The translations under genes were made by a program, and so were the position numbers. The notes under the pieces are model-generated. The model searched no databases and was not told where the DNA came from. It worked only from the letters and a program-made list of their open reading frames with translations. From an uncultured bacterium (GTDB lineage: Bacteria > Bacteroidota > Ignavibacteria > Kapaibacteriales > UBA4661): a DNA stretch of 64,000 nt. Every line of letters begins with the position of its first letter. The first letter of the stretch is position 1. This document shows positions 6,493-26,874 of the stretch, one piece after another. The stretch is from positions 9,213 through 73,212 of the forward strand of contig CALCNX010000089.1 of assembly GCA_937899715.1 (NCBI GenBank). The letters run 5' to 3'.

Positions 6493-6519
6493 CAGGCATA
6501 GAGTCTCAGCAAGTAAGCA

Positions 6520-6558: not shown

Positions 6559-6582
6559 ATTGTTTGAACTTAGCTGCATATC

Positions 6583-8135: not shown

Positions 8136-8258
8136 ACTCTAGTAGAGCAAAAAATGTGTAAAGTGGTAGTAAGTGCCTCCAATCATCAAGGATTGGCTTA
8201 CGAGAAAAGCGTGATAAACCTACATAGTGCGAGGTAACATCATCATTGAGTAGCATTA

Positions 8259-11423: not shown

Positions 11424-11898
11424 CGGCAGGGGTGAAAAGTATCACAAAATGATAATGGATATGAAACAGTAAAAATACAAAACACTCCGCACAAAGACTA
11501 GAAATTCATTACCAAACTAACAAAAAATTGTTTGACTGCTTTTTGATATTTTGGGGAGAGTTTAACTTGTTCTGTGTAAACTCCCCCACACCCAGCCCTC
11601 TCCCAGAGGGCAAGGGCTTTAGAGGCTTTAGAGCGGATTGGATGGTGTTCAAAAGAAGTTGATAGTGTGCTTGAGAAGCAAAGCGGCATACTGCCTTATT
11701 GTAGTTTGTCAACTCACAAAAGGAACACTACCAGATTGGTTTTTCTTATTTTAGCTCCTTCTCCTTTTGGGAGACGGTGGGGGATGAGGTCTGATTACAC
11801 AAAGATTCCGTACACTCTCATAGCAGTTCACAATTAATTACAGATGAAGAAATAGTTTATCGTCGTAACATTTTTTTGTAAGTTACGTTTGACTAACT

Positions 11899-12306
11899 AT
11901 GAAAATCCTTTCCCAAATATTGGCTACTGTGCTCGTAGTTCAGCTGCTTGTTGCCACAAGTAGCATACCGCTCGTGTACCATTTTTGCGGGGACGAAGTG
12001 GAAAGCGTTTCGGTCGGTGTGGCGAAACAGTGCGATTGTCAGCACGATGATCAAGATGAAGACGATAGCTGTGCTAAAGATTGCTGTCGTAACGAACTTC
12101 ATATTAGCGAATTTCACCCCGATGCACTTTTAAGTGCGCCAATTGTTCCTCCCACGTCCTTATTTGCGGCTCTCCACATTGTTCTGCCGTTTTCTTCTCC
12201 TGCTTCCGCTTACGAGAAGCACCCCGTTTGCACTATTGCTTTTGATACTCACCCTCCAGCCCGAAGTTCGGATATTCCTATCCTTTTTCGCTCTCTCCTG
12301 ATTTAA
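11899..12306 (+). CDS. Hypothetical exported Cys/Asp-rich protein at the 5' edge of the copper island.
   Basis: Hydrophobic N-terminus, then the acidic cysteine cluster CDCQHDDQDEDDSCAKDCC. No recognisable family; plausible metal-binding. Confidence 0.4.
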   Translation: MKILSQILATVLVVQLLVATSSIPLVYHFCGDEVESVSVGVAKQCDCQHDDQDEDDSCAKDCCRNELHISEFHPDALLSAPIVPPTSLFAALHIVLPFSSPASAYEKHPVCTIAFDTHPPARSSDIPILFRSLLI

Positions 12307-12521
12307 GCCTCCAATCGCCACATTGAACCGACGGAATATCTTCGCTGATACATTCTGTGCGGTTTGTCGTGCATTCTTCTGCTTTTTTATTCTATTTTTT
12401 AGCAAGCAATCCCAAGCCCGGAGCGCAAGCATAGTTCTGCATACTGCGAAGTACGCTGAACACTTGTTTGTACTTCAAATTTCTTCCTAATTTTTCTAAA
12501 CTTTTATATTCGAGGTTATAT

Positions 12522-12911
12522 ATGAAACCCTGCTGTGAAACAAGCGCACCAAAGCGCAGATTCAGCACAAATGCTCTTTTGAGCATTGTTGCTATAATGA
12601 TTGTCGGTATTGTTCTCGTAAACGCGACCGCGTTCGGAGCGCCCAAAAAAGAGACCGTGAAGGTCTGGGGCAACTGCGGTATGTGCAAAAAGACAATTGA
12701 AAAATCGCTCAAAGGCGTAAACGGTCTTGAATCGGCATCGTGGGACAAAACCACCAAGATTCTTACTGTTAGCTACGACGATAGCAAAATTGCCATGAAG
12801 CAAATTGAGGAAAAAGTCGCTGCCGCCGGTTACGACACACAAAATGTAAAAGCAAACGACGGTGCATACAGCAACCTAGCAAAATGCTGCAAGTACGACC
12901 GCAAGAAATAA
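12522..12911 (+). CDS. Membrane-anchored heavy-metal-associated (HMA) domain protein.
   Basis: N-terminal transmembrane segment, then a ferredoxin-like HMA fold carrying a variant metal-binding motif GNCGMCKKTIEKSL in place of the canonical GMTCxxC. ATG at 12522. Confidence 0.65.
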   Translation: MKPCCETSAPKRRFSTNALLSIVAIMIVGIVLVNATAFGAPKKETVKVWGNCGMCKKTIEKSLKGVNGLESASWDKTTKILTVSYDDSKIAMKQIEEKVAAAGYDTQNVKANDGAYSNLAKCCKYDRKK

Positions 12912-12925
12912 TCTTAGGCACTTGG

Positions 12926-12988
12926 GGAGTGCGGAATGGATTGCACAAAGCTCGTAAATCTACCATACGCAAATAATTTCCGCACTCC
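12926..12988. repeat. Copper-island palindromic intergenic element, copy A (GGAGTGCGGAA …41 nt… TTCCGCACTCC).
   Basis: Perfect 11-bp terminal inverted repeat. It starts 15 nt after the stop of the HMA gene (12911) and ends 32 nt before the PepSY ATG (13021). Confidence 0.7.
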
Positions 12989-13020
12989 ATGATTTGACTA
13001 TTTATTCAAGAGAAAAAGCT

Positions 13021-13773
13021 ATGAAATTTCGCACTATATGGATTCGCACAACGCACCGCTACATGGGTGTTATTGTTGGTATTCAGTTTATCTTCTGGAC
13101 GGCAAGCGGTTTGTTTTTCGCATGGAACGATATTGATGCTGTCCATGGAGATACCCTAATGGCGCATCAACACCCTTCATTTATATTCGACACGGTGAGT
13201 GTTGTTCCCGTCGCAACTGCGGTGGAGGCGCTTAAAAGTAATGTTACGAATGTCTAAAGCGTTCAATCTCTCCAGCTCCGTGAATTCTTGCACGAACCAA
13301 TGTATGAGCTTCGGTATCTACGTGACGAAAAAGAGCATTTCGCCTTGGTGAATGCTCATACAGGCGTATTCCACAAGCCGCTTACTGCTGAAGAAGCTAG
13401 CGCTGTTGCCGTAGCTGACTTTACGCCCCATGCGGCGGTGCAAAGCGTGGAATATATTACGGAAGTGGAATCCTCATCGGAATACCGCGACAAACCACTT
13501 CCTGCCTATCGCGTTACCTTCGACCATGAAAGCGCTACGCATATCTATGTTTCTGCCGAGCGCGGCACTGTTACTTCCCGGCGAAATGGTCGGTGGCGTA
13601 CTTGGGATTTTCTTTGGGCATTTCACATCCTCGACTTTCAAACCCGAGACAATATTCACAATTGGCTTTTGCGGGGTATGTCAGCACTGGCGGTAATGAC
13701 CGTATTGAGTGGTTTTCTCTTGTGGGGTTTTACTTCGTCCACACTCCGCAAACGGTTTGCCGCAAAATCGTAA
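13021..13773 (+). pseudogene. PepSY-associated transmembrane-helix protein interrupted by an in-frame TAA at 13255-13257.
   Basis: ORFs 12994..13257 and 13288..13773 lie in the same frame and are separated only by a TAA. The translation across the stop stays protein-like (…VTNV*SVQSLQLREFLHEPMYELRYLRDEK…). There is an N-terminal TM (GVIVGIQFIFWTASGLFFAW) and a C-terminal TM (LRGMSALAVMTVLSGFLLWGF), matching the small PepSY_TM architecture. Confidence 0.45.
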
Positions 13774-13875
13774 TAGACAACACACAATCTCCCGAGAGAA
13801 GTTCGGGTACACTAAATAGACAGCCGCCGTGGAGAACCTCCATTTGTACTCCAAATCTACTCACTTCATAACACT

Positions 13876-14454
13876 ATGCTGAAAACATTGATTCTTCTCG
13901 TATTGGCAGCATTGTCCTTGAGCACAAAGACACTGCAAGCCGACAGCACCGCCGCTAATGTTGAGCACGCACTACCCGATAGCACACAGATTACAAAAGC
14001 GACAAAAAGTCCGCGTATGACAATAAAGGGTACCATTGGTAAAGCCACCATCACCATAGACTACGGCTCGCCCAGGGTTCGTGGGCGCGTGATTTGGGGT
14101 GGTCTAATTGCCTATGGTACGGTCTGGGCAACGGGAGCGCATCACGCAACCTCCATTGCCTTCAGTCGTGCTGCAGTTATCGGAGGGAAAATCGTTAAAG
14201 CAGGCAAGTATGCGCTTTTTACCATTCCCGATAAAAACGAATGGACAGTGATTATCAACAAAAACTACGACCAACACTTAGCAGATGATTACGACGAAAA
14301 ACTGGACATTATTCGTCTGAAAGTAATGCCCAAATCAGTTGAAACAATTCAGGAAGAACTAACATTCGGTATTGTCGCTTCCGATGCAAGCGAAGGACAT
14401 ATCAGTTTTGCATGGGATAAACTCATCTGGACGCTTCCTCTGAAATCTCTTTAA
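13876..14454 (+). CDS. Secreted DUF2911-like protein.
   Basis: Signal peptide MLKTLILLVLAALSLSTKTLQA. Motifs VIWGGLIAYGTVWATGAHHATSIAF and AGKYALFTIPDKNEWTVIINKN match what I recall of DUF2911. Confidence 0.5.
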   Translation: MLKTLILLVLAALSLSTKTLQADSTAANVEHALPDSTQITKATKSPRMTIKGTIGKATITIDYGSPRVRGRVIWGGLIAYGTVWATGAHHATSIAFSRAAVIGGKIVKAGKYALFTIPDKNEWTVIINKNYDQHLADDYDEKLDIIRLKVMPKSVETIQEELTFGIVASDASEGHISFAWDKLIWTLPLKSL

Positions 14455-14473
14455 GCGAAGTGAGAAACAGATT

Positions 14474-15040
14474 ATGCAAACAACACTCCACATCAAAAAC
14501 ATGGTCTGCGCTCGCTGTATCCGCACGGTGCATGACGAGTTGACAGCACTTGGCTTGCAGGTCAAAAGCGTTACGCTGGGCGAAGCCACTGTTGAAGGTG
14601 AGGCGCACCTAGACGAGATTCGCCCACGACTGGAGGCACAAGGATTTGAATTGTTAGAAAGCAATACCGCCAAACTTGTGGAGCATATCAAAACGGCAGT
14701 GATTCATTTAGTGCGTTCTGATACTTTGGAAGCAATGACAGAGCGGGTGTCAGAATATCTTGCGCGAGTGATTGGTAAAGATTACGAATATCTGAGCAGT
14801 CTATTTTCATCGGTGGAAGCCATGACGATTGAACGGTATATTATTCTCCAAAAAATTGAACGCGTCAAAGAACTTCTGGTGTATGATGAATTGACCTTGA
14901 GCGAAATAGCGTATCGCTTGGGATACAGCAGCACAGCACACGTATCGCGGCAATTCAAAGAGGTTGTTGGTATGCCGCCCAGTGCTTTCAAATCGCTGAA
15001 GGACAAGCCCCGCACCGCTCTTGACCGCATCGGGCAATGA
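14474..15040 (+). CDS. Metal-responsive AraC-family transcriptional regulator with an N-terminal HMA-like metal-binding domain.
   Basis: N-terminal HIKNMVCARCIRTV (MxCxxC-type) ferredoxin-like domain, plus a C-terminal AraC helix-turn-helix (LSEIAYRLGYSSTAHVSRQFKEVVGMPPSAFK). It sits immediately upstream of copZ/copA. Confidence 0.75.
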   Translation: MQTTLHIKNMVCARCIRTVHDELTALGLQVKSVTLGEATVEGEAHLDEIRPRLEAQGFELLESNTAKLVEHIKTAVIHLVRSDTLEAMTERVSEYLARVIGKDYEYLSSLFSSVEAMTIERYIILQKIERVKELLVYDELTLSEIAYRLGYSSTAHVSRQFKEVVGMPPSAFKSLKDKPRTALDRIGQ

Positions 15041-15046
15041 AAAAAC

Positions 15047-15121
15047 CGAGCGTGTGGAAAAATTCGCTCCGAAAGAAAGTATTCAAGACCAAAGGAAGAA
15101 TCAACTTTTCGTTCACACTCC
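15047..15121. repeat. Possible degenerate sixth copy of the same element (right arm GTTCACACTCC, left arm GAGCGTGTGGAA).
   Basis: The right arm matches copy B's GTTCGCACTCC at 10 of 11 positions. It sits between the HMA-AraC regulator stop (15040) and copZ (15232). The left arm is only weakly similar. Confidence 0.35.
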
Positions 15122-15231
15122 GGCAAAGAATTCTGCAACTCTTTTCGGTTTATCTGTAACGTTGGAAGCAGCATCACATGGTATTTTTGTAGTGTAAGTT
15201 TTTTCATACACTATCATCTGGAGAAATAATC

Positions 15232-15471
15232 ATGACACACACATTTGCTATTCCCGGTATGACCTGCTCAGGCTGTGAGCGCACTGTTACTCGTATTTTG
15301 AGCAGTATTGACGGCATTACCGATGTTAAAACAGCACTACAACCATATTCCCACGTGGAAATTACCATGACGCGGCATCTTGAGACCGATGCTCTCAACG
15401 CCGAACTTGGCAAGGTTGCCAAAGGGAAATATGTGCTTTTGTCTGACACCGCAAACGGGGGAGCATTATGA
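15232..15471 (+). CDS. copZ: Copper chaperone CopZ (single HMA domain).
   Basis: [14 protein letters not shown] motif; 79 aa; its stop overlaps the copA start. Confidence 0.8.
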
Positions 15472-17759
15472 ACGCCGATCAGTCAGACCCGGTGATTTCT
15501 ACGGTAACACTGGACATTAGCGGTATGAGCTGCGCTTCTTGTGCTGCGATGGTAGAAGATGCGCTCGCTACCACGCCGGGTGTGCAAAAAGCAAGCGTCA
15601 ATCTTGCATCTGAGAAAGCAACCGTATCCTTTGCACCGAAGCAGGTAAACGTGGAAATGCTCAAAACATCTGTTGAAAGCGCAGGCTACGGGGCAAGCGA
15701 AATAAAACACGATGGTAATCGTGCAGCACAAGCCGAAGCCACCGAGACGCGCAAACTCGCCGAGTACAACGCACTCAAACGCCGCTTCGCCATTGCTGCT
15801 CTGCTTGCAGCAGTAATTATGCCCCTTTCAATGACGATGCTGTTTCCAAGCGTGGAGCATTTTTTTCACCAGACTATAGGAATGCAGGCATTAAACTACA
15901 TTTTGCTTGTGCTCACGCTGCCTGTGTTGCTTTATAGCGGGCGCGAATACTATGTTTCGGCATACAACACGTTTTTGCATCGTGCGGCAAATATGGACAC
16001 CTTGATTGCCGTCGGTACGGGAGCAGCATTTGTGTACAGCGTCGTGGCGACGGTTGTGCCTGCACTTTTTGAGCAACACGGTATGAAAGCGGAGGTGTAT
16101 TTCGACACCACAGCAACAATTATAGCACTTGTTCTGCTCGGCAAAGTTTTGGAAACGCGGGCAAAAGGTCAAACGTCTGCTGCTATCAAAAAACTCATCG
16201 GTTTGCAAGCAAAGACCGCACGAATCCTCGTGCATGGTCAGGAACAAGAAATACCCATTGAGAGCGTCGTCGTGGGCAATATCGTCGTGGTACGTCCGGG
16301 CGAAAAAATCGCCACTGACGGCGAAATTACAGAAGGTTCGTCATCGGTTGATGAATCCATGCTCACGGGCGAAAGTTTGCCAATCGAAAAGACACAAGGT
16401 TCATCAGTGTTTGGCGGCACGGTCAATAAGACAGGACGCTTTACCTTTCGCGCAACGAAGGTCGGCAGCGATACCGCACTTGCACAAATCGTGCGGCTTG
16501 TGGAAGAAGCACAAGGCTCGAAAGCCCCTATTCAACGCCTCGCAGACAAGATTAGCGGCATATTTGTTCCGGCAGTTGTGGTAATTTCCATTCTCACGTT
16601 TGTTGCATGGTTCAATCTCATGCCCGCCGATGTGCGGTTGCCTTTTGCGCTCGTGAATTTTGTTGCAGTGCTTATCATTGCTTGTCCCTGTGCCTTGGGT
16701 CTTGCTACGCCAACGGCGATTATGGTTGGCACAGGCAAAGGCGCGGAACACGGTATTCTGATTCGCAATGCCGAAAGTTTGGAGAAGGCGCACCAAATCT
16801 CAGCAATTCTGCTTGATAAAACGGGTACCATCACGAAGGGCGAACCGACGGTAACAGACTTTGTGATTCTCGGTGAACTGGCACTGCGAGGGAAAACGAT
16901 ACAGCTTGCCGCTTCGCTCGAAAGCAATTCCGAGCATCCTCTTGCGGCGGCGATTGTGAACTGCGGCACACGCGAAGGCGTACAGTTATTGCCCGTAAGC
17001 CATTTTATGGCAGTAGAAGGCAAAGGTGCAACGGGTGTGGTGGACGGGAAACGCATCGCTATCGGTAATACAAAACTTATTGCTGACGAAAACATCATAC
17101 TTACCCAAGAGGCTCTGCAAACCGCAGAGCGCCTTATTGCCAATGCACGAACAGCTATGTTTGTGGCGATTGAGGGACAAATTCAAGCGGTAATAGCTGT
17201 GGCAGATGTAGTGCGCGGAACATCGCGCGAGGCAGTAGCGGCATTGCAAGCGCGTGGAATCGAGGTAGTGATGCTCACGGGCGACAACCAAAAAACGGCA
17301 GAGCATATTGCCTCTGAGGTAGGAATCAAGCGGGTCTTTGCGGATGTTCTTCCGCAGGACAAAGCAAATGCAGTAAAGCAACTGCAAGCAGAAGGCAAGA
17401 TTGTTGCAATGGTCGGCGATGGCATCAACGACGCTCCGGCACTGGCTCAAGCAGACGTGGGCATAGCCATTGGCGCAGGAACGGACGTGGCAATGGAAGC
17501 AGCGAGTATAACGCTGATGCGGAGCGATTTGCGCGATGTGGTAAAAGCCATTGACCTTTCGCGCCGCACGATGGCGAACATCAAGCAAAATCTCTTTTTC
17601 GCATTTGTCTATAACGTGCTTGGGATTCCACTTGCGGCAGGGCTGTTCTATCCCTTCACAGATTGGCTTTTAAGTCCGATGATAGCGGCGGCGGCGATGG
17701 CAATGAGTTCGGTATCGGTGCTGACCAACGCGCTCCGCCTCAAAACGATAAAACTATAG
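15468..17759 (+). CDS. copA: Copper-translocating P1B-type ATPase.
   Basis: N-terminal HMA ([14 protein letters not shown]), transmembrane CPC motif ([13 protein letters not shown]), phosphorylation site DKTGTIT, hinge [10 protein letters not shown] nucleotide motif ([10 protein letters not shown]). Confidence 0.9.
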
Positions 17760-17830
17760 GAGTGCGAACGGAAGTTCGCCCAATCAACCAAAAGACAAAT
17801 TTTATTCTGCGAACTTCTTGTTCGCACTCC
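17759..17830. repeat. Copper-island palindromic element, copy B (GGAGTGCGAACGGAAGTTCGC … GCGAACTTCTTGTTCGCACTCC).
   Basis: It begins at the last base of the copA stop codon and ends 14 nt before the cupredoxin ATG. The outer GGAGT/ACTCC arms enclose two GCGAAC-N4/5-GTTCGC sub-hairpins. Confidence 0.7.
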
Positions 17831-17844
17831 AATTCTCTATAATT

Positions 17845-18222
17845 ATGGACACAGCACAAATTCTCGTAACGCTTGCTGGCACTGGACTCGTGGTGTTTGT
17901 GGTGTGGTATTTCTTTTTCGGCAAACGCGAAACAAAGGCTGCAATGCTCACAGCAAGCGGCGTTCAAGAAATCTCTGTTCTAGTCAAAGGCAGCTACACG
18001 CCTGAGATTATCGAAGTCGTCAAAAACAAACCCGTGCGTCTCAAATTCTACCGCGACGAAACCTCAAGTTGCTCGGAAGAGCTGGTTTTCGGCGAGTTCA
18101 ATCTCCGACGCGAGCTACCTGCTTTTGAAACGACGGTGATAGACATTACACCCACGAAAATAGGCACATTCGAGTTTACGTGTGGGATGAATATGCTCCG
18201 TGGCAAACTTGTAGTCAGATAA
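17845..18222 (+). CDS. Membrane-anchored cupredoxin-like (EfeO-N/Cup-type) small copper-binding protein.
   Basis: N-terminal transmembrane helix, then a beta-sandwich with C-terminal EFTCGMNMLRGKLVV. ATG at 17845; the track start at 17818 is a TTG inside the upstream repeat element. Confidence 0.5.
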   Translation: MDTAQILVTLAGTGLVVFVVWYFFFGKRETKAAMLTASGVQEISVLVKGSYTPEIIEVVKNKPVRLKFYRDETSSCSEELVFGEFNLRRELPAFETTVIDITPTKIGTFEFTCGMNMLRGKLVVR

Positions 18223-18229
18223 CAAACAC

Positions 18230-18293
18230 GGAGTGCGGACGGAAGTTCCGCAAAAAAAATAGAACTTAGTATGCGAACTTCCGTTCGCTCTCC
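18230..18293. repeat. Copper-island palindromic element, copy C (GGAGTGCGGACGGAAGTTCCGC … GCGAACTTCCGTTCGCTCTCC).
   Basis: It starts 8 nt after the cupredoxin stop and ends 13 nt before the multicopper-oxidase ATG. Same architecture as copy B. Confidence 0.7.
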
Positions 18294-18306
18294 ATTAGGA
18301 ATAACC

Positions 18307-19836
18307 ATGAAAACCAATCGGCGAACATTTTTGCAGCTTGCGGGCGGCACTGCGTTTGCACTCGCAGGTGGAAATGCCTTTCAAAGCTGCATGAACCCAA
18401 TGAATTCCGGTAATATGACCGAAGTAACAATTGGTGGCGAAACAGGTCTGCCGTTCCGCCAACCTTCGGTCTGGAATGGTTCTGGTATCAGCGCAAGCAC
18501 TACGACGCTCGACGTGCAAGGCGCTCCCGTTCAAGCATGGGCAATGGGCAGCTCGGTACTCGCGCCAACTATTCGCGTGCCGAAAGGTGCAGCGTTTTCA
18601 GTGCAACTTCAAAATCAGCTTGCAATGGAGACCAATATCCACTGGCACGGCTTGACTGTTCCCTCAACCATGGACGGGCATCCGAAAGACGTTGTCAAAA
18701 CGGGCGGTACATTTACTTATGCTTTCCCCGTTTTTGACCGTGCTGGAACGTACTGGTATCATCCGCACCCGCATAAAAATACGGCACGACAGACCTATAT
18801 GGGCATGGCGGGATTGTTCATCGTTGACGACCCCGCAGAAGCCTCTCTCAATCTGCCTTCGGGCGAATTTGACGTACCGCTCGTGCTGCAAGACAAACGC
18901 TTTCAGCAAGTGAAACGCTTCGTTTATGCACCTTCGATGGCAGACGTAATGACGGGTTATTTGGGCGATACAATGTTCGTAAACGGTGCTCCGGTGCCAT
19001 ATCTGGACGTAGAGAATGGTCTCTACCGCTTTCGTGTGCTGAACGCAGCAACGGCACGGGTAATGAAATTGGGCTTTGAAAACGGCATGGTGTTTCACGT
19101 TATTGGTACAGACGGGGGATTGATTGACGCGCCACAACAGGTAACAAGCGTAATGCTCTCGCCGGGCGAGCGTGTTGAGATTCTCGTGAACTTTGCGAGC
19201 ATAGCGCTTGGTGGCTCGGCGTTGTTTCAAACGCAGGAATTTACCTTGCCCGCTGCACCAGCATCACAGAGCGGGATGAATGGAATGACGATGAGCGCGT
19301 ACAAGCAAGGAATGGCAATGCCTATCATGCGCTTCAATGTGAAACGACAAACTACGCGGCAAACGACCATTCCACAGGCTCTCACACCGATTGAGCGCAT
19401 AAGCGCAGCACAAGCGACGAAAACACGGACGTTCACACTGAATATGGAAATGGTGTCGCTTGAAGGTGGTGCAACGCCTCATGGTGGCACAAATGGTGGC
19501 GAAATGATGCGCCACACGATAAATGGTAAACTCTTCGCAATGGAACGCATTGATGAGAAAATCACTTTTGGCACAACCGAAATCTGGGAATTCCAGAACA
19601 AAGGCGATGAGCCACACCCAATGCACGTTCACGGAACCCAGTTTCAAGTTTTGTCGCGCTCCGGTGGTGCGCTCGCGCCAGTGGATATGGGGTGGAAAGA
19701 CACTGTGCTGGTGAATCCCAATGAGAGTGCGCGCGTCATTCTGCGCTTCGACAAGTATCGAGGTATATACTTGGTGCATTGCCACAACCTTGAACACGAA
19801 GACGATGGTATGATGCAAAATTTTGAAGTCGTATAG
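18307..19836 (+). CDS. Tat-exported multicopper oxidase (CueO/CopA-like).
   Basis: Tat signal MKTNRRTFLQLAGGTAFALAGG. Copper ligand motifs HWHG, WYHPHPH, HPMHVHG, HCHNLEHEDDGMM. Confidence 0.85.
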   Translation: MKTNRRTFLQLAGGTAFALAGGNAFQSCMNPMNSGNMTEVTIGGETGLPFRQPSVWNGSGISASTTTLDVQGAPVQAWAMGSSVLAPTIRVPKGAAFSVQLQNQLAMETNIHWHGLTVPSTMDGHPKDVVKTGGTFTYAFPVFDRAGTYWYHPHPHKNTARQTYMGMAGLFIVDDPAEASLNLPSGEFDVPLVLQDKRFQQVKRFVYAPSMADVMTGYLGDTMFVNGAPVPYLDVENGLYRFRVLNAATARVMKLGFENGMVFHVIGTDGGLIDAPQQVTSVMLSPGERVEILVNFASIALGGSALFQTQEFTLPAAPASQSGMNGMTMSAYKQGMAMPIMRFNVKRQTTRQTTIPQALTPIERISAAQATKTRTFTLNMEMVSLEGGATPHGGTNGGEMMRHTINGKLFAMERIDEKITFGTTEIWEFQNKGDEPHPMHVHGTQFQVLSRSGGALAPVDMGWKDTVLVNPNESARVILRFDKYRGIYLVHCHNLEHEDDGMMQNFEVV

Positions 19837-19903
19837 GAGTGCGGAATGTACACCGCTTCTTCAAGTCAAACTAAAATTTTATGCAGAATAAATTCTGCAC
19901 TCC
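19836..19903. repeat. Copper-island palindromic element, copy D (GGAGTGCGGAAT …44 nt… ATTCTGCACTCC).
   Basis: It starts at the last base of the multicopper-oxidase stop and ends 18 nt before the cusA ATG. The terminal inverted repeat matches 11 of 12. Confidence 0.7.
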
Positions 19904-19921
19904 AATAAGATTCCTACCGCC

Positions 19922-22900
19922 ATGATTGAAAATATCATCGAATGGAGCGCGAAGAACCGTTTTATCGTTCTTTTAGCGTACTGCATCATTATCGGCATTG
20001 GCGTTTTCGCCGTCGCACGGCTGCCTGTGGATGCTATTCCCGACCTTTCGGAAAACCAAGTAATTGTCTTTACGGAATGGATGGGACGCTCACCCGAAGT
20101 GGTCGAAAATCAAGTAACCTACCCGATTGTGTCGAATCTGCAAGGACTTCCGCAGGTCAAAGCAGTACGCGCTTCCTCCATGTTCGGAATGTCGTTTGTG
20201 TTCGTCATTTTTGAGGACAACACGGATTTGTATTTTTCGCGGAACCGTGTGCTGGAGCGCTTGAACGTCATTCAAGCAAAACTGCCCGCAGGCGTTACGC
20301 CCACGCTTGGACCTGACGGCACGGGAGTTGGTCACGTGTTCTGGTACACGCTCGAAAGCAAAAAACCTCAAAGTAAAAGCTCTCAAAGCAATAGCTCAAC
20401 AAGCAAGGATGGAAAGCACTTCTACGATGCCGGAACACTCCGCGCTGTGCAGGATTGGTACGTGCGCTATAAACTCTCAGCGGTGGAAGGAGTGGCGGAA
20501 GTGGCAAGCATCGGCGGTTTTGTCAGGCAATATCAAGTGGATATTGACCCGATGAAACTTCGCGCTTACAACGTGAGCGTAGCGGAAGTCGTGAACGCGC
20601 TCCAACGCAGTAACAATGAGGTTGGCGGGAAACTACTTGAAATCAGCAGCGCAGAGTATTTTGTGCGCGGTCAGGGCTACATTCATTCCAAAGAAGACAT
20701 CGAAAATACTGTCGTCCGCACGGCATCGAATGGCGTTCCCTTGATGATACAAAACATTGCCACCGTGCAGCTTGGCGGCGACATCAGGCGCGGCACGATG
20801 GACAGAGACGGCAAAGGTGAGGCAGTTGGCGGAATTATCGTTATGCGGAGCGGCGAAAACGCTCGTGCGGTGATTGAGCGCGTGAAGCAAAAAATTACGG
20901 AGATTTCGCCCGGACTGCCCGAAGGCGTGGAAATATACGCCTCCTACGACCGCTCGACGTTGATTGAAGCGGCGGTAGGGACGCTTGAACGCGCTTTAGT
21001 TGAAGCCGCCATCGTGGTTTCGATTATCGTCGGAATTTTTCTTCTGCATTGGCGGAGTATTATCCGCATTATCATTGAATTGCCGATTGCTGTGCTGATG
21101 TCGTTTATTCTGATGTATGCTTTGGGTATCACGTCCAACATTATGAGTCTGGGCGGGATTATCCTTGCTGTGGGCGTGATTGTGGATTCGTCCATTGTTC
21201 TGGTGGAAAATTCGTATCGCAATATTGCCCACGCCATTGAACAAAAAGGACACCTCACGCCGGATGAGTACAAGCGGATTGCGATTGATTCCGCGAAACA
21301 AGTCGGTCGAGCTATTTTCTTTAGCGACCTCATTATTCTTGTGTCGTTTCTGCCCGTGTTTTTGCTTACCGGGCAAGAAGGCAAGCTCTTCAAGCCGCTT
21401 GCATTCACGAAAAGTTTCGCGCTTTTGTCGTCCGCAATCGTCGTTGTAACGCTTATTCCTGTTTTGATGACAATGCTTATGCGTGGCAATTTCAAGCCTG
21501 AAGATGCCAATGTACTCACGCGCTTTTTCAAATGCCTCTACGAGCCGATTATTCATTGGGTGCTGAAGTGGCGCAAAACCACAATGGCAATCAACATTCT
21601 CGCACTTCTCGCCACGATTCCGATGATAATGAACACGGGTTCGGAATTCATGCCACCGCTTGATGAAGGTTCGATTTTGTATATGCCCGTAACGCTGCCG
21701 AATGCTTCCACACCGGAAGTAAACCGCATTTTACAGGAACAAGACCGCATTATTAAAACCGTGCCGGAAGTCGCTCATGTTCTGGGCAAGGCAGGACGCG
21801 CCGAAACTGCAACCGACAACGCGCCGGTGAGCATGATTGAGACAATTATTCTGCTCAAGCCCAAAGAAGAGTGGCGGGCTGGGCTTCGCAAAAAAGACAT
21901 TATAGCCGAACTGGATAAAAAACTGCAAATCCCGGGCGTTCGCAACGGCTGGACGCAACCGATTATCAACCGCATCAATATGCTTTCCACAGGCGTTCGT
22001 ACTGACATTGGCTTCAAAATTTACGGTGATAATTTGGACACGCTGGAACACTACGCCATCAAAGCCGAAGAAATCTTAAAAACGGTTCCGGGAGCAGCGG
22101 ATGTGGTGGCAGACCGTGCACAAAACGGATATTATCTGGACATCAGTATCAAGCGAGAAGCCGCAGCACGATACGGCGTAAAGGTCGCCGATGTGCAGGA
22201 CATTATCGAAACCGCTATTGGCGGACAAAATTTGAGCGTTATTCTGGATGGTCGTATGCGCTTCCCGCTCCGAATGCGCTTCGCACGGGATTCCCGCGAA
22301 AGTATTGATGAATTGGAGCGTTTAATTGTACCTATTCCGGCACGAGGTTCTGTGGAAGCAAGTTTCGGTGTAGGCAGTAGTGCAACTGGTGGTATGAGCA
22401 GCGGCAGTGTGGCGGCGAGTGGAGGTATGGGTGGAATGAATAACTCTGCCACTCCCGTTAAAGAAGCAAGCAACAATGCGGGTGCTGATGCAGGAAGTTC
22501 CTCGTCGCTCTTCTCAAGCGGTCAGTCAGGCGGGCAAACTTTTGTTCCCCTTTTCTATCTCGCTGATATTCGTGTCGTGAATGGTCCTTCGATGATAAAC
22601 AGCGAACACGGTTCACTCAGGGCTGTTGTGTTCATGAATGCTCGTGGGCGTGATATGGGCGGCGTAGTGGAGGATGCACAGCGTACCATCGCGGAAAAAC
22701 TGAAACTGCCGACGGGGTATTCGGTGGAATGGAGCGGGCAGTACGAGCATAAAATTCGCGCCGACCGCACTATCAAAATCATCATGCCCGTTGTGTTTCT
22801 CATCATTTTCGTTTTGCTGTATTTCACGCTGAAAGATTACGTCGAGGCAGGAGTAGTGATGCTTTCCGTGCCATTTGCGCTCATTGGCGGAATGTACATG

Positions 22901-23347
22901 ATTTACGCATTAGGCTATAATTTTTCGATTGCTGTGTGGGTAGGATTTATCGCGCTCTACGGCGTGGCGGTGGAAACAGGTGTGGTGATGGTGGTTTATC
23001 TGCACGAGGCATTGGACAAACGCTTGCTGGCTGTACAGCGCGGTGAGCGTGGTGCGCTCACGAACACCGATATTTACAAGGCAGCAGTAGAAGGCTCCGT
23101 ATTGCGCTTGCGCCCCAAACTGATGACGGTGCTGACGGCAATGATTGGGCTTGTACCCGTGATGTGGGCGACAGGAACAGGTGCGGACGTAATGAAGCCG
23201 CTCACTGCCCCGATGATTGGTGGTCTGCTTACGTCTGCTGTTCACGTGCTGGTCGTAACGCCGGTACTGTTTGTGATGATGAAAGAGCGGGCTTTGAAAC
23301 GTGGAACACTCGAAGTCTCGAAAATGGCAGGATGGATGGGGCATTGA
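19922..23347 (+). CDS. cusA: Heavy-metal efflux RND transporter, CusA/CzcA (HME) family, with a ~90-aa Gly/Ser/Met-rich low-complexity insertion.
   Basis: 12-TM RND architecture and typical HME-RND segments (…AIPDLSENQVIV…, …GGIILAVGVIVDSSIVLVEN…). Insertion …GSSATGGMSSGSVAASGGMGGMNNSATPVKEASNNAGADAGSSSSLFSSGQSGGQTF… near residue 820. Confidence 0.9.
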   Translation: MIENIIEWSAKNRFIVLLAYCIIIGIGVFAVARLPVDAIPDLSENQVIVFTEWMGRSPEVVENQVTYPIVSNLQGLPQVKAVRASSMFGMSFVFVIFEDNTDLYFSRNRVLERLNVIQAKLPAGVTPTLGPDGTGVGHVFWYTLESKKPQSKSSQSNSSTSKDGKHFYDAGTLRAVQDWYVRYKLSAVEGVAEVASIGGFVRQYQVDIDPMKLRAYNVSVAEVVNALQRSNNEVGGKLLEISSAEYFVRGQGYIHSKEDIENTVVRTASNGVPLMIQNIATVQLGGDIRRGTMDRDGKGEAVGGIIVMRSGENARAVIERVKQKITEISPGLPEGVEIYASYDRSTLIEAAVGTLERALVEAAIVVSIIVGIFLLHWRSIIRIIIELPIAVLMSFILMYALGITSNIMSLGGIILAVGVIVDSSIVLVENSYRNIAHAIEQKGHLTPDEYKRIAIDSAKQVGRAIFFSDLIILVSFLPVFLLTGQEGKLFKPLAFTKSFALLSSAIVVVTLIPVLMTMLMRGNFKPEDANVLTRFFKCLYEPIIHWVLKWRKTTMAINILALLATIPMIMNTGSEFMPPLDEGSILYMPVTLPNASTPEVNRILQEQDRIIKTVPEVAHVLGKAGRAETATDNAPVSMIETIILLKPKEEWRAGLRKKDIIAELDKKLQIPGVRNGWTQPIINRINMLSTGVRTDIGFKIYGDNLDTLEHYAIKAEEILKTVPGAADVVADRAQNGYYLDISIKREAAARYGVKVADVQDIIETAIGGQNLSVILDGRMRFPLRMRFARDSRESIDELERLIVPIPARGSVEASFGVGSSATGGMSSGSVAASGGMGGMNNSATPVKEASNNAGADAGSSSSLFSSGQSGGQTFVPLFYLADIRVVNGPSMINSEHGSLRAVVFMNARGRDMGGVVEDAQRTIAEKLKLPTGYSVEWSGQYEHKIRADRTIKIIMPVVFLIIFVLLYFTLKDYVEAGVVMLSVPFALIGGMYMIYALGYNFSIAVWVGFIALYGVAVETGVVMVVYLHEALDKRLLAVQRGERGALTNTDIYKAAVEGSVLRLRPKLMTVLTAMIGLVPVMWATGTGADVMKPLTAPMIGGLLTSAVHVLVVTPVLFVMMKERALKRGTLEVSKMAGWMGH

Positions 23348-23395
23348 TTTTTTTGAATTGACTCTATTTCACCAAAATCTACTGTACAAAAATGT

Positions 23396-24721
23396 ATGCG
23401 ACTAATAATCATTGCTCTTTTACCAACGCTTCTTTGTGGAGTTTCACTCCCTGCGCAGCCGCTTGATTCCTTGCTTGCCGAAGCTACACGAAACAACGCA
23501 CAGCTTCGCGCTTACGGTTTCGCTGTGCAAGCCGCCGAACATCGCATAGATGCTGCTGGCGCACTGCCACCTCCGCAAGCAGGTGTATCGGTGGAGCAAG
23601 TGCCGGTCGGCAATTTTAACATTGTGAACAGCGCACTATCCAACAACTTCTACGCTTCGCAAATGTTCATGCTGGGCGGAAAACTTGACGCAATGCAAGA
23701 CATGGAGCGGGCGCGAGTAAAAAACGAACACGAGCGCACTCAAGAATTTGCAGCTAAACTTCGCGCCGAAATTACGACCGCCTACACGATGCTTTGGCGC
23801 ATTGACCGCCAGCGCGAGGTGTACGCCAGCACTGCCACCCTTCTTTCGCGCTCCATCGAAGTCGCATCGGCACAAGTGCAAGCCGCACGACTTCCCTACA
23901 CAGAAGTAATGCGCTTGGAAGCAGAGAAATCCCTTGCGCTTCTGAAACACACAACGCTTGGTAACGAACGTAAATCTGCGATTGCTATGCTGAATGCGCT
24001 ACTGGGGCGTACAAATACGGCTTCGGTGAATATTACGCCTATTCTCGCAGAACGACGATTTATCGAAGAACAAGTTCGTATCAATCTTAAACGACTTGTC
24101 GTCTCCAATCCCACGCTACGACGTATGACAAGCATGATTGCCATGACTGAAGCGGAACGGATTTCGAGCGAAAAAGAGTCAATTCCTGACGTGATGCTAC
24201 AAGGGATGATTATGCGAATGCCTCAAGGAATGGCGCTTACGGCGAATTCACCTATTTTCACTGGTGCGCTTGAATCACCATTTGCCTACGTTGTTCGTGC
24301 GCCGAATGCCCCACCTGACTTTATGTATAGCCTCATGGCACAAATTACGTTGCCCTTTGCACCATGGTCGTCGGCAAAATATACCGCCAAAACACAAGAA
24401 CTCGCAGCCATAGCCACCTCGCAAACACTGGAGCGCGAGAATATGGAGCGGATGCTCTCGGCACAAGTAGAAGAACAAGTACAAAAAATGCAGACTGCCG
24501 CAGAAACCGCAGACATCCTCGAAAAAACGGTCATTCCGCTTTACGAACGCACGTTGGATGCCCAATTAACAATGCTCTCCACCGCACAAGCAAGCATAAA
24601 CACACTGCTCGACACTGAGCGAATGCTATTGATGAAGCGCGATGACCTGCTCATGGCACGTGAGCAATACCACCTTGCGCTCGCTCAGCTAGAATACTTG
24701 CTTGGCGAGCCGTTGCGATGA
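23396..24721 (+). CDS. cusC: Outer-membrane efflux factor (TolC/CusC-like).
   Basis: Signal peptide and two-repeat OEP architecture with coiled-coil periplasmic segments. Located between cusA and cusB. Confidence 0.75.
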   Translation: MRLIIIALLPTLLCGVSLPAQPLDSLLAEATRNNAQLRAYGFAVQAAEHRIDAAGALPPPQAGVSVEQVPVGNFNIVNSALSNNFYASQMFMLGGKLDAMQDMERARVKNEHERTQEFAAKLRAEITTAYTMLWRIDRQREVYASTATLLSRSIEVASAQVQAARLPYTEVMRLEAEKSLALLKHTTLGNERKSAIAMLNALLGRTNTASVNITPILAERRFIEEQVRINLKRLVVSNPTLRRMTSMIAMTEAERISSEKESIPDVMLQGMIMRMPQGMALTANSPIFTGALESPFAYVVRAPNAPPDFMYSLMAQITLPFAPWSSAKYTAKTQELAAIATSQTLERENMERMLSAQVEEQVQKMQTAAETADILEKTVIPLYERTLDAQLTMLSTAQASINTLLDTERMLLMKRDDLLMAREQYHLALAQLEYLLGEPLR

Positions 24722-24730
24722 TTTTTTATC

Positions 24731-24794
24731 GGATTGCGGAATTTTAATTCCGCCTTTTTCAACAATTTCAATCGCGGAATAAATTCCGCACTTC
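24731..24794. repeat. Copper-island palindromic element, copy E (GGATTGCGGAATTTTAATTCCGC … GCGGAATAAATTCCGCACTTC).
   Basis: Two perfect GCGGAAT-N2/4-ATTCCGC palindromes flanked by degenerate GGAtTG / CACTtC arms. It lies between the cusC stop (24721) and the cusB ATG (24805). Confidence 0.6.
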
Positions 24795-24804
24795 ATGCAC
24801 GATT

Positions 24805-26100
24805 ATGAACTACCTCATTCTTGCCATTCTTTTTATCCTGACGGCGTGTTCGCAAAAACAGAACGCGCAAAATGGACACGCAGGACACAATGATTCTACC
24901 GCTCTGCAAGCCGCAAAGCCCGTCAAATATATCTGTCCGATGCACCCCAAAGTAACGTCCGACAAAGAAGGTATTTGTCCAATTTGTCAGATGGACTTAG
25001 TGCCGGAAAACAGCCCTGAAGCGAAGGAATACGCGGAGGACGAGCATTCTCACGAGCATAGTTCTCACGAGAACAGTTCTCATACGGAACATACGTTGGG
25101 CGAGCTTGCCATAACAGGGCAAAGCCGTGTACTGGCGGATGTGCAAACAGCAACCGTTCAGAGCGAGTCTATTCATCGCACCGTCAATGTTGTTGGCACA
25201 TTGGACTTTGCCGAACAGAATCGCCGCAGTATCACTGCCCGCGTGAGTGGACGGATTGAAAAATTATACGTGAACCAGTCTGGGATGACCATTCGTAAGG
25301 GGCAGGCACTTTTTGATGTGTACAGCCCCGAACTCCTACAAGCACAAAACGAGTATATCATTGCCTTCAAAAACCAGCAATTAGCAAGCCTGAGCGGTGG
25401 CACAAGCACGGCAATTCTCAGAAAATTGAAAGAGCGTTTGATGATTTGGGGGCTGACCGAAGAGCAAGTTCAGGCACTAGAGCGCTCGCAGGATGCACCA
25501 CTCACAACCACTCTTCATGCGCCTTTCGGCGGGACGGTGATTGAGAAAAAAGTTGTGGAAGGAACGTTTGTGAGCATCGGCGCACCACTCTTTGAAGTTG
25601 CCGACCTTTCTACGCTGTGGAATATAGCAGGGATTTATGAAACAGACGTGGCGGCGGTGAAGATTGGTCAACAGGTTGCTCTGAGGACGCAAACCTATCC
25701 GGGCGAGACCTTCAAAGGGCGCATTGCCTTTATCTATCCCGTCGTGAACGCGGAATCGCGCACGGTGAAAGTCCGTATTGAAACGCCCAACCCTCACAAA
25801 AGGCTACGTCCGGCGATGTACACCGAAACAACGTTTATGCTCAATCAAGGCAAAGGCTTGACTGTTCCCAATGATGCGGTGTTGGTAACAGGCAAACAAT
25901 CTATTGTTTGGGTGCAGGCACAGGTCGAAGCAAACAAATTCGAGGCGCGGCGCGTAACGCTGGGAGCAAAATTTGACGGTAAAATACAAATTCTTTCCGG
26001 TGTATCGGCAGGAGAAAAAGTGGTGGCACGTGGTGGATTTTTGCTGGATTCGGAGCGGCAGTTGCGCGGTGGAACTGGCAGCGAAGGACATCAGCATTAA
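24805..26100 (+). CDS. cusB: RND efflux membrane-fusion (periplasmic adaptor) protein CusB-like, with an N-terminal YxCPMHP heavy-metal-binding domain and a His-rich stretch.
   Basis: Lipobox LILAILFILTACSQ; HMBD-type motif YICPMHPKVTSDKEGICPICQMDL; His-rich EDEHSHEHSSHENSSHTEH; HlyD/biotin-lipoyl-like barrel segments. Confidence 0.85.
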   Translation: MNYLILAILFILTACSQKQNAQNGHAGHNDSTALQAAKPVKYICPMHPKVTSDKEGICPICQMDLVPENSPEAKEYAEDEHSHEHSSHENSSHTEHTLGELAITGQSRVLADVQTATVQSESIHRTVNVVGTLDFAEQNRRSITARVSGRIEKLYVNQSGMTIRKGQALFDVYSPELLQAQNEYIIAFKNQQLASLSGGTSTAILRKLKERLMIWGLTEEQVQALERSQDAPLTTTLHAPFGGTVIEKKVVEGTFVSIGAPLFEVADLSTLWNIAGIYETDVAAVKIGQQVALRTQTYPGETFKGRIAFIYPVVNAESRTVKVRIETPNPHKRLRPAMYTETTFMLNQGKGLTVPNDAVLVTGKQSIVWVQAQVEANKFEARRVTLGAKFDGKIQILSGVSAGEKVVARGGFLLDSERQLRGGTGSEGHQH

Positions 26101-26160
26101 GGCGCAACACCACAAAAAACGAGCGGTGGAGCATTTTTTTCGCTTGCAGAGTTACTCTCC

Positions 26161-26874
26161 TCACCGATAATCAGGCTTCACCGCATACTCAATTGGGTCA
26201 TCCAATCCGGCAAGCTGAAAGCCGCGCAGACGCAAGGCACACGAGTCGCACTCCCCGCAAGCCACGTCATTCCGCTTGTAGCAGCTCCACGTCAGATGGA
26301 GCGGAGCGCCTAATTCAGCGCCTTTCAAGACAATATCTTTTTTGGAAAATGTAATGACTGGTGTGTAAATCGTGATGCGCGTTTCCGGTTTTGTGCCTGC
26401 ATCAATCACACTTTGGAACGCCTCGTAAAATTCACGTCTGCAATCGGGATAGCCGCTTCCATCTTCCTCCACAGCGCCGATATAAAGTGCTTTTGCGCCC
26501 AGCACTTCTGCCCAACTCACCGCAATTGCCAGAATATTTGCGTTGCGAAAGGGAACATAACTGGTTGGGATAGTCGTGGTTACCAAATCCGCACTCGAAA
26601 CTTCGATGGTTGTATCGGTGAGACTGCTACCGCCTATCGCCGCAAAGTGGGTTACGTCCACCGCGAGGCGTTTTTCTACTCCGTAGAAGTCTGCAATCGC
26701 GTGAAATGACCGAAGTTCACGCTCTTGTGTACGTTGCCCGTAGTTCAAATGTAGTGCCGCAATTTCATAGCCTGCCGCGTGAGCAATGGCAGCGCACACG
26801 GCAGAATCCATGCCGCCGCTCAAGAGAACAACAGCGAGAGGCTTTATTTCAGGTTTGGTATTGGATTTATTCAT
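26161..26874 (-). CDS. queC: 7-cyano-7-deazaguanine synthase.
   Basis: PP-loop SGGMDS at the N-terminus and the C-terminal zinc cysteines CGECDSC; 237 aa. Confidence 0.9.

Follow-up and report, generated by a model that had tools for sequence, protein, structure and literature searches.

A probable copper-efflux module carrying its own REPIN family, with a RAYT transposase embedded in the islands of sister strains, in a Kapabacteria-type bacterium

We analysed a 64-kb stretch of DNA (hereafter the window) from a Kapabacteria-type bacterium of the Fibrobacteres–Chlorobi–Bacteroidetes (FCB) group. Positions 11846–26126 probably form a self-contained module for Cu(I) detoxification and efflux, with a private family of REPINs (doublets of repetitive extragenic palindromic, or REP, units that form hairpins) and a recombination history separate from that of at least part of its surroundings. 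What stands out is that this island carries its own REPIN family, and that a REP-associated tyrosine transposase (RAYT) is embedded in the island of sister strains. An earlier note had described the block as a copper and heavy-metal resistance island between argD and queC; the listing of open reading frames (ORFs) and the Pfam and NCBIfam scans find each of its twelve genes on the plus strand at the position given there, with a domain or family match for every one, and bear out both the coherent copper-handling block and its flanks, a class-III aminotransferase gene (argD-like) on the left and queC on the right (Table 1). The genes of the proposed extent, 11899–26100, stand, but its ends do not: homology with relatives, which runs from 53 nt 5' of the first ATG to 26 nt 3' of the cusB stop codon, sets them at about 11846 and about 26126. 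Fetched comparison loci are labelled L001, L002 and so on.

The repeats are recognisable from their sequence as REP/REPIN elements because they match the structural definition of such elements and because relatives encode a cognate RAYT (PMC3116915, PMC5581495). Each REP unit consists of a GGAGT head, a 6–7 bp stem and a loop of 4–6 nt, the repeat ends reading GGAGTGC.../...GCACTCC; the stem is GCGGAA or one of the variants GCGAAC, GCGAAT, GCGAAA and GCAGAA, each with its matching complement, and the loop is TTTA, TGTA, TTCA or GGAA. Two inverted units 12–35 nt apart make up a doublet, and the window holds five such elements of 63–72 bp with ends GGAGTGCGGAA...TTCCGCACTCC, in the HMA/PepSY, copA/cupredoxin, cupredoxin/oxidase, oxidase/cusA and cusC/cusB spacers. 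Doublets of relatives measure 54–84 bp, and one of 96 bp in L006 holds an extra unit. The five island spacers contain six copies of GGAGTGCG, and the rest of the 64 kb has one, within queC; a variant copy, GGAGTGCA, the seventh in the island, lies on the minus strand in the oxidase/cusA spacer. The stems covary in a set of 36 distinct units taken from other genomes (GC to AU in 8, AU to CG or UA in 7), with a score that none of 500 shuffles reached. Pairing holds in 98.6% of stem cells overall, and compensatory double changes are seen in 15, at two stem positions; as units with more than one stem mismatch had been left out at selection, the paired percentage is inflated, and the number of double changes is not.

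A covariance model built without the window's units (R1) finds exactly ten units in the window (E ≤ 0.02), all within 12926–24794, and nothing else with E < 0.1 in the 64 kb. The private repeat family that the earlier note had taken as a sign of a block acquired or maintained as a unit is thus genuine and derived from a mobile element, an identity that had not been recognised. With the same model, no units were found in the other 50 kb of the window, in the 21-kb backbone locus L199 (from the same RAYT-positive metagenome-assembled genome, or MAG, as L005) or in L196–L198, and there were none in the 7-kb right flank of the RAYT-positive locus L195. Typical REPIN density in E. coli and Pseudomonas is about one per 7 kb, from which seven would be expected in 50 kb. 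The GGAGT element is present in the island spacers of L002–L006, L187, L188, L191, L193 and L195 (30 units with the exact head GGAGTGCG in L005 and 11–12 each in L003 and L006; 13 in L188 and 16 in L187 when one head mismatch is allowed), and absent from the flanks of close relatives and from the 75 more distant multicopper oxidase loci that were fetched (L007–L081). In L189, where the oxidase is 55% identical and the regulator and copA are absent from the locus, a diverged doublet (TGAGTACGGAATACATTCCGC...GTACAGAATACATTCTGTACTCC, 18136–18221) lies at the cusA/cusC junction, which indicates that the association of REPINs with this locus is old. No Rfam family matches the repeats, the single match being a chance snoRNA. 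Matches of GGAGTGCGGAANNNNTTCCGC on viral contigs were discarded as chance, 22 of the 23 coming from one homologous phage sequence, present as two variants, and the remaining one being unrelated.

The cusA/cusC spacer of L005 holds, between REPINs, a 179-residue ORF (15117–15656) that matches Pfam Y1_Tnp. Comparison with E. coli TnpA-REP (PDB 4ER8; E = 1.2 × 10−11) aligns its HYH with the HMH of the enzyme (the HUH motif) and shows tyrosine at both aligned tyrosine positions, in the NPxKHG region; its database relatives are annotated as REP-associated tyrosine transposases. Homologues 72–93% identical occupy the cusA/cusC junction in L191–L195, with a REPIN on both sides of each, and the gene, present in the sister strain L193 and three further lineages, invariably lies between these REPINs. 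On these sequence grounds, the RAYT of the sister strains would be the cognate transposase of the window's repeats. At the same junction L193 has a 713-bp REPIN-REPIN-RAYT-REPIN segment where the window has 99 unrelated bases (23346–23444), and L195 likewise differs from L003 and L188 by the RAYT segment, so that presence of the RAYT is polymorphic within both species-level lineages. The idea that loss of the RAYT caused the decay of the window's REPINs was rejected, because the RAYT-positive sister L193 has the same partly decayed copies. A literature search for RAYTs inside metal islands returned nothing relevant.

Some units lie within coding sequence. In RAYT-positive genomes, the REPIN downstream of the RAYT falls inside the cusC ORF and is translated as its signal peptide (KNRSAKFISLFLLIFCGI..., with a lipobox-like LxxC; L193 8752–8814, L005 15746–15805 and L191 9654–9713, to be compared with 23396–23460 in the window), and RAYT-negative genomes, the window included, encode an unrelated CusC signal peptide that begins with MR. 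The cusA/cusC junction is also a hot spot, holding in different genomes an IS5-family transposase (L187 17540–18455), a methyltransferase (L004 8043–8657), a RAYT, or nothing. CusA has a clade-specific insert of about 75 residues after residue 808 (about 808–880; about 22340–22540 in the window), rich in Gly, Ser and Met, that holds a REP-like sequence. In L005 this sequence forms a perfect right-arm unit (GCGGAATGAATTCCGCACTCC, 14115–14135, translated as GGMNSALP), and it is found also in L191 (8108–8128); the L003 version has one extra base, and that of the window is more decayed (GGMNNSATP). The insert may descend from insertion of a REPIN into the coding sequence.

REPIN–RAYT systems are known as REP elements and bacterial interspersed mosaic elements (BIMEs) with TnpA-REP in E. 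coli, and as the REPINs of Pseudomonas fluorescens (Bertels & Rainey; PMC3116915, PMC3337134, PMC5581495). The REPINs described so far have been spread across the chromosome by a RAYT present in one copy (PMC5581495), and the systems are usually chromosome-wide and vertically inherited, their benefit to the host being unknown (PMC5581495; bioRxiv 10.1101/2021.07.10.451892). The island's units resemble these in having a conserved 5' head and a hairpin, in forming inverted pairs with a short spacer, in being mostly extragenic, and in being homogenised within a genome and slightly different between genomes; the transposase of the relatives likewise is a small Y1/HUH enzyme homologous to TnpA-REP, with no TnpB partner and with its own REPINs around the gene. 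Unlike the described systems, the repeats appear confined to one metal-resistance module of 14–17 kb, where they stand at almost every junction; the RAYT sits inside that module at a fixed junction, where strains of one species may have it or lack it; some of the units are read as protein, namely in the insert of CusA and the signal peptide of CusC; GGAGT takes the place of the GTAG head; and the window's strain has the repeats without the transposase. A whole REPIN–RAYT system here seems to be linked to a single adaptive gene module, and this opens its function to test: natural RAYT-positive and RAYT-negative strains that are 97–98% identical can be compared, REPINs can be examined as transcript or recombination boundaries within one operon-like block, and the effect of copper stress on their activity can be measured.

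Several features of the encoded proteins point to copper. In translation, CopA has the motifs CPC in transmembrane segment (TM) 4, YN in TM5, MxxSS in TM6 and DKTGT, with one N-terminal HMA domain; it scores 699 against the E. coli CopA equivalog model, below the cut-off of 1316. CusA matches E. coli CusA (chain 3T51) with E = 2.5 × 10−285 and the zinc pump ZneA with E = 1.8 × 10−157, and residue-by-residue alignment with E. coli CusA shows that it keeps the three-methionine Cu(I)/Ag(I) site M573/M623/M672 and the proton-relay residue D405. The adaptor (HlyD_D23 with HMBD) and the outer-membrane factor (OEP) are encoded beside it; CusB has an N-terminal HMBD (YICPMHP...CPICQM) and a His-rich linker, and there is no CusF-like ORF among the ORFs of the module, nor in those of relatives. 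The oxidase carries an NRRTFLQ twin-arginine translocation (Tat) motif and Met-rich segments, read in translation, and all three cupredoxin domains, and scores 342 bits against the NCBIfam CueO model, below its equivalog cut-off of 525. The regulator combines an HTH_18 DNA-binding domain with a CxxC HMA-like domain. The module would, on these features, be specific for copper in vivo.

From what is known of the families, the HMA-AraC protein would sense cytoplasmic Cu(I) through its CxxC motif and control transcription, and CopZ would pass Cu(I) to the P1B-1 ATPase CopA for export to the periplasm. There the CueO-like oxidase, perhaps with the anchored cupredoxin-like and HMA proteins, would oxidise or buffer Cu(I), and CusA with the outer-membrane factor and CusB would carry it out through the outer membrane; in CusB, an N-terminal domain that binds metal would take the place of the absent CusF. 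No relevant publication on HMA-AraC copper regulators was found in the literature, and the protein, whose regulatory role we infer, would as far as these searches showed be an uncharacterised type of copper sensor. The module shares with the E. coli systems CueR-CopA-CueO and CusRS-CusCFBA a P1B-1 ATPase, a regulator that would likewise sense cytoplasmic Cu(I), a multicopper oxidase with Met-rich segments and a Tat signal, and a tripartite resistance-nodulation-division (RND) pump with the CusA residues M573/M623/M672. It differs from them in that all parts form one co-oriented block, in that the sensor is an HMA-AraC fusion and not a MerR-type CueR or a two-component CusRS, in the pump order A-C-B with an HMBD on CusB and no CusF (C-F-B-A in E. 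coli), in the 75-residue insert of CusA, and in the additional genes for the DUF8199, anchored HMA, PepSY_TM, DUF2911 and cupredoxin-like proteins.

Comparison across relatives shows that both gene order and metal-site variants, as read from sequence, are the norm of the lineage. The closest relatives of the oxidase are in five Kapaibacterium/Ignavibacteria MAGs (77–80% identity, among species-representative genomes; L003 is the published Kapabacteriales MAG Clear-D13, PMC7714850), followed by Cytophagales and other Bacteroidota at 41–54%. Among the 18 loci with a CusA at least 50% identical, 17 have cusA before cusB with a gap the size of an outer-membrane protein (OMP) gene, L007 being the exception; the Cytophagales MAG L015 has an OEP gene and then two HMBD-CusB copies downstream of cusA. 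The organisation that the earlier note had called non-canonical, cusA-OMP-cusB, is therefore standard for this CusA subfamily in Kapabacteria and Cytophagales, and the HMA motifs that it had called variant prove to be family signatures, KNMVCxRC being present in 29 of 29 regulator homologues and C[G/E]MC in 20 of 23 homologues of the anchored HMA protein. For annotation, this means that cusA-OMP-cusB, HMBD-CusB without CusF, and HMA-AraC regulators are an ordinary FCB-group layout and no sign of anomaly. The accessory set (HMA-AraC, anchored HMA, DUF2911, PepSY_TM, oxidase and CopA) recurs in Emticicia, Runella, Chryseolinea and others, and the copper clusters of Cytophagales (Emticicia, Runella, Chryseolinea and Cyclobacteriaceae; L013–L081) resemble the module in accessory genes, cusA-OMP-cusB order and metal motifs. 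At the protein level they are 42–54% identical to it, and they differ in the order of sub-blocks, in often having a duplicated cusB, and in lacking the GGAGT-hairpin repeats and the RAYT. A reduced form of the island occurs in L002 (3091–6591), which lacks the anchored HMA, HMA-AraC and copZ genes, has copA directly after DUF2911 and holds three partly decayed REPINs.

The ends of the module are the same in relatives whose neighbouring genes differ, and in this sense the block behaves as a unit, as the earlier note had proposed. Homology with six relatives starts about 53–55 nt before the first ATG, at a conserved stretch that resembles a promoter and in which TACGTTTG is a putative match to TAnnTTTG, which we take to be the Bacteroidota −7 motif. 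Upstream of this point the six relatives are mutually unrelated, except for about 330 nt common to L003 and L188. The left neighbour, argD in the window, differs in five of the six element-bearing relatives (L003 has tRNA-Val and tRNA-Leu genes there, L188 a tyrosine recombinase and L005 a caspase-like gene, and L002 and L006 have other genes again), and in L005 both neighbours differ. The recombinase gene of L188 (1026–2129) and the tRNA genes of L003 (2763–2973) adjoin islands that are near-identical (97% at the nucleotide level). On the right, homology with L005 ends 26 nt 3' of cusB, and that with L003, L188, L195 and L162 runs on into queC-dusB-tilS.

Sequence divergence changes at the right end. 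We grouped the genomes into lineages A (the window and L193), B (L003, L188 and L195, 97–98% identical to each other), C (L187 and L196) and D (L005 and L199). Compared with lineage B, identity at four-fold degenerate sites is 36–58% in island genes and 67–81% in queC, dusB, tilS, hpt and ftsH, with the step at about 26.2 kb, the right edge of the module, and overall divergence falls from about 25% to about 8% just past the right end. A recombination breakpoint thus coincides with the module edge, whichever side was exchanged. Within lineage A, L193 is 98.35% identical to the window over 15225–23345 and 95.2% over 23445–26106, and its identity is mosaic (100% in the oxidase and cupredoxin-like genes, 96–97% in copA, 95% in cusC-cusB). 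Taken together, the same ends beside different neighbours, the changes of slot by single genes described below and the step at the right edge indicate that the module has had a recombination history separate from that of some of its surroundings.

Among eight genomes the core order is kept and single genes switch slots without changing strand. PepSY_TM precedes DUF2911 in the window and L005 and follows the oxidase in L002, L003, L004 and L188; the methyltransferase lies at copA/cupredoxin in L002 and at cusA/cusC in L004; and DUF2231 (with a 154-residue partner ORF in L002 and L006) follows DUF8199 in L005 and L006 and precedes the oxidase in L002. Genes for BrkB, MFS, YHS, YNCE-like propeller and SnoaL-like proteins are extra genes found in single genomes, and L005 has a gene of 355 residues between near-identical REPIN copies (2852–2908 and 4015–4071). 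It seems that the upstream gene keeps the left arm of a REPIN and the downstream gene its right arm; the BrkB insertion and the methyltransferase insertion of L002 have no REPIN at their junctions. REPINs and the RAYT may thus have a part in shuffling genes, or in their expression. A larger proposal, which we advance as speculation and consider quite unlikely as a whole, is that the REPIN–RAYT system lives in, travels with and is confined to the copper module, that its REPINs serve as boundaries for excision, loss and re-insertion of single genes, and that REPIN DNA has now and then been recruited as coding sequence, as for the insert of CusA and the signal peptide of CusC. If true, this would be an integron-like way, based on an HUH transposase, of keeping a resistance module modular, with PepSY_TM, the methyltransferase, DUF2231 and the RAYT as the moving genes.

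A number of results weigh against reading the block as a copper module with private REPINs and a separate history. The G+C content of the island (0.45–0.51) is like that of the rest of the window and its tetranucleotide distance (0.087) is in the middle of the range of control segments of equal length (0.074–0.134); the composition check proposed in the earlier note therefore gives no signal of acquisition, and composition was dropped as evidence for it. Insertion between argD and queC, which that note had implied, was not borne out: relatives of ArgD (86–93% identical) keep the synteny on its far side and have miaB-like, uvrD or TonB-receptor genes in the place of the island, a different gene beside argD in each, and none has an empty argD-queC site. 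Exact look-ups of the window's QueC, ArgD and oxidase returned the same strain only, with the island present, and a metagenome scan with QueC gave best relatives at 70% identity, none with the same neighbourhood. No integrase, transposase or RAYT was found in the window, where a tblastn search for the RAYT finds nothing in the 64 kb, so that this strain has at present no means of moving the repeats; the window's repeat listings contain no flanking direct repeat, no dedicated search having been made, and the 64 kb hold no tRNA gene. Of the usual marks of a genomic island we thus find a discrete block with the same ends in different contexts and no deviant composition; an integrase or tRNA gene at the ends is lacking in the window and appears in relatives as the recombinase of L188 and the tRNA-Val and tRNA-Leu genes of L003. 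In the left flank, the divergence of genes from lineages C and D (35–55% identity at four-fold sites) equals that of the island, so that the exchanged piece may be either the island or an unusually similar right flank; in the latter case island and genome may have diverged together. REPINs normally occur throughout a genome, and their confinement here has been sampled in about 90 kb of flanking and backbone DNA outside the islands. Of the REP hallmarks, the window shows the head-and-hairpin unit and the inverted doublets with a short spacer and lacks the cognate RAYT, and chromosomal dispersal is not seen in the DNA sampled. Finally, copper is preferred to silver or another soft metal from residues only.

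Much of this would be expected if the block were no island at all, but a vertically inherited cluster of the genus whose neighbours were changed by ordinary rearrangement. Such a cluster would match the window in G+C and tetranucleotide usage, would occur, as it does, in every close relative found, and would be as diverged from lineages C and D as the housekeeping genes of the left flank; queC-dusB-tilS, moreover, adjoins it in two species-level lineages, on five contigs besides the window (L003, L162, L188, L193-like and L195). We nevertheless regard vertical inheritance alone as unlikely: it does not account for identical ends beside unrelated left neighbours in five of six genomes and beside two different neighbours in L005, for the step in synonymous divergence at the right end, for the recombinase, tRNA genes, IS5 transposase and RAYT at or inside the block in relatives, or for the mosaic identity to L193 (oxidase 100%, cusC-cusB 95%). 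An integron-like array, in which a tyrosine recombinase moves single-gene cassettes at palindromes, would explain why co-oriented genes are in many cases separated by imperfect, genome-homogeneous palindromes of 54–84 bp, why single genes occupy different slots across genomes and why, in L188, a tyrosine recombinase gene immediately precedes the first gene. We consider it highly improbable, as the recombinase is found at one of the six left ends sampled (L188) and gives weak Xer-like matches with no integron-integrase signature, IntI is absent, and the genes form a functionally coherent set that is for the most part conserved. The cores of attC sites read RYYYAAC/GTTRRRY; the island's palindromes lack such cores and are paired with an HUH transposase, the RAYT.

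The repeats themselves could be kept for other reasons than those of a REPIN–RAYT system. If they were primarily cis-regulatory, operators for the HMA-AraC protein that switch each gene individually in response to copper, then their confinement to the copper module, 10–30 nt 5' of start codons, would follow; the regulator is encoded in each of the six complete islands that bear the elements, L189 without it had no elements as first searched (one diverged doublet was found later), and copper loci of other lineages carry TACT-G6-TA six to eight times per locus on one strand, and related 11-mers up to 14 times on both strands, a motif that presumably resembles RcnR/CsoR operators. This is improbable as their main role given that a RAYT lies between the same units inside the island (L005, L191–L195), that the stems covary and have no fixed sequence, that the spacing of units varies from 12 to about 35 nt, that units occur within coding sequence (the cusA insert and the CusC signal peptide), that L002 has units and no regulator gene in the locus, and that Cytophagales with orthologous regulators (42–53% identical) lack the motif; the REPINs may have been co-opted later as binding sites. 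A role in mRNA, as intercistronic hairpins for attenuation, processing or end protection, is possible though on balance doubtful as the reason why the repeats are kept. It accords with the co-oriented genes and short spacers, with the T-rich run (CTTTTTCAAC and similar) that typically follows the left unit on the coding strand, with the terminator-like score of the window unit 24736–24753, and with the persistence of elements at orthologous junctions across genomes about 25% diverged; by inspection, moreover, the imperfect pairs of left units are mostly G-T, a pairing that RNA permits, and four G-U pairs, orientation disregarded, stand at the closing position. Yet both units of a doublet are the same sequence on opposite strands, loop included (TTTA/TAAA), as DNA-level recognition needs and RNA function does not, Rfam gave no match, and the window shows partial decay of its copies and has no REPIN at several junctions that hold one in L005. 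A scan for sigma-70 promoters and terminators stayed near shuffled controls (17 promoters vs. 15.3; 31 terminators vs. 20.6, s.d. 4.7), with only one REP unit terminator-like. As an added function of the REPINs, as for the BIMEs of E. coli, a role at the RNA level is plausible.

Table 1. Module genes, REPINs and flanking features in the window. E-values given for REPIN units are those of covariance model R1, in the order of the units.
Feature	Position	Strand	Evidence and remarks
argD-like class-III aminotransferase	10209–11423	−	Left flank
Conserved left end, promoter-like GAAGAAATAGTTTATCGTCGTAACATTTTTTTGTAAGTTACGTTTGA	11846–11898	+	Homology with all relatives begins here
HYC_CC_PP / DUF8199 protein	11899–12306	+	NCBIfam NF047658, 41.7 bits (cut-off 28); PF26622 in precomputed annotation; small, Cys/Asp-rich, signal-anchor
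Membrane-anchored HMA protein, GNCGMC	12522–12911	+	Pfam HMA, E = 8 × 10−11; hydrophobic N-terminal anchor, N-terminal MKPCC, C-terminal KCCKYD
REPIN 1	12926–12988		Units 12926–12944 (+), 12969–12988 (−); E = 0.012, 0.0022; both hairpins partly decayed
PepSY/PepSY_TM gene, one in-frame TAA	13021–13773	+	Pfam PepSY; stop at 13255–13257
DUF2911 protein, signal peptide	13876–14454	+	Pfam PF11138, E = 4.8 × 10−47
HMA-AraC regulator (putative), KNMVCARC	14474–15040	+	Pfam HTH_18, E = 1.6 × 10−16; weak CopZ-type match, residues 2–59
CopZ-like chaperone, GMTCSGC	15232–15471	+	Pfam HMA, E = 1.5 × 10−9; stop overlaps copA start
CopA, P1B-1 Cu(I)-exporting ATPase	15468–17759	+	NCBIfam TIGR01511, 639.5 bits (cut-off 397)
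REPIN 2	17759–17830		Units 17759–17779 (+), 17809–17830 (−); E = 5.5 × 10−5, 7 × 10−4; stems GCGAAC/GTTCGC; left head overlaps copA stop codon
Membrane-anchored cupredoxin-like protein	17845–18222	+	Pfam PF13473 (Cupredoxin_1), E = 9 × 10−20
REPIN 3	18230–18293		Units 18230–18251 (+), 18273–18293 (−); E = 0.0043, 0.01
Tat multicopper oxidase, three domains, CueO-like	18307–19836	+	Pfam Cu-oxidase_3, Cu-oxidase, Cu-oxidase_2
REPIN 4	19836–19903		Units 19836–19856 (+, decayed), 19883–19903 (−); E = 0.02, 3.4 × 10−5; minus unit with stem GCAGAA/TTCTGC; left head overlaps oxidase stop codon
CusA/CzcA-family heavy-metal RND pump, 1141 aa	19922–23347	+	TIGR00914, 1133 bits
Outer-membrane factor (CusC/TolC-like, OEP), lipobox-like LLCG	23396–24721	+	Pfam OEP, E = 5 × 10−24
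REPIN 5	24731–24794		Units 24731–24753 (+), 24774–24794 (−); E = 1 × 10−5, 5.5 × 10−5; best-preserved copy; plus unit followed by CTTTTTC
CusB-type periplasmic adaptor	24805–26100	+	Pfam HlyD_D23, E = 1 × 10−72; HMBD, E = 6 × 10−13
Right end of module	26101–26126	+	L005 homology ends here
queC	26161–26874	−	Right flank, then dusB, tilS

Some of these entries call for comment. The predicted start of the oxidase is likely 18307 (MKTNRRTFLQ), since in the longer ORF the alignment with relatives begins at residue 12, and that of the cupredoxin-like gene is likely 17845 and not 17818. Alignment of the PepSY_TM gene with its orthologues shows Gln, Arg or Thr at the codon that is TAA in the window and an intact ORF of about 258 residues; the same stop is present in L001, an independent assembly of the same strain, which indicates that the inactivation is a genuine and recent nonsense mutation. 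Between argD and the left end of homology, the 314 bp at 11532–11845 have no similarity to any fetched locus and contain two G+C-rich hairpin motifs, CCCTCTCCCAGAGGG and TCTCCTTTTGGGAGA...GGTGGGGGATGAGG.

Copper loci of other lineages have high-copy motifs of their own. In L055, L078 and L081 (Saprospiraceae) and in L072, they hold 6–14 copies of TACTGAGGGGGTA or TACTGGGGGGTA, which presumably resemble the TACT-G6-N-AGTA operators of RcnR/CsoR-family repressors; further private motifs are CTACGGCGGGC in L044, AAGATTTAAGA in L036 and AGTTTTTAAAA in L031. Elsewhere in the window, 39351–42276 encodes a DUF2946 protein followed by a TonB-dependent receptor, a pairing that we take to be typical of copper-uptake loci, and has no GGAGT repeats. 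A PemK/MazF-type toxin gene lies at 51004–51354, and the small ORF upstream of it (50747–51031) could encode the antitoxin. The highest tetranucleotide deviation in the window (z = 2.6–2.9), above that of the copper island, falls at 2001–9000, a region of histidine kinases, response regulators and a GAF protein.

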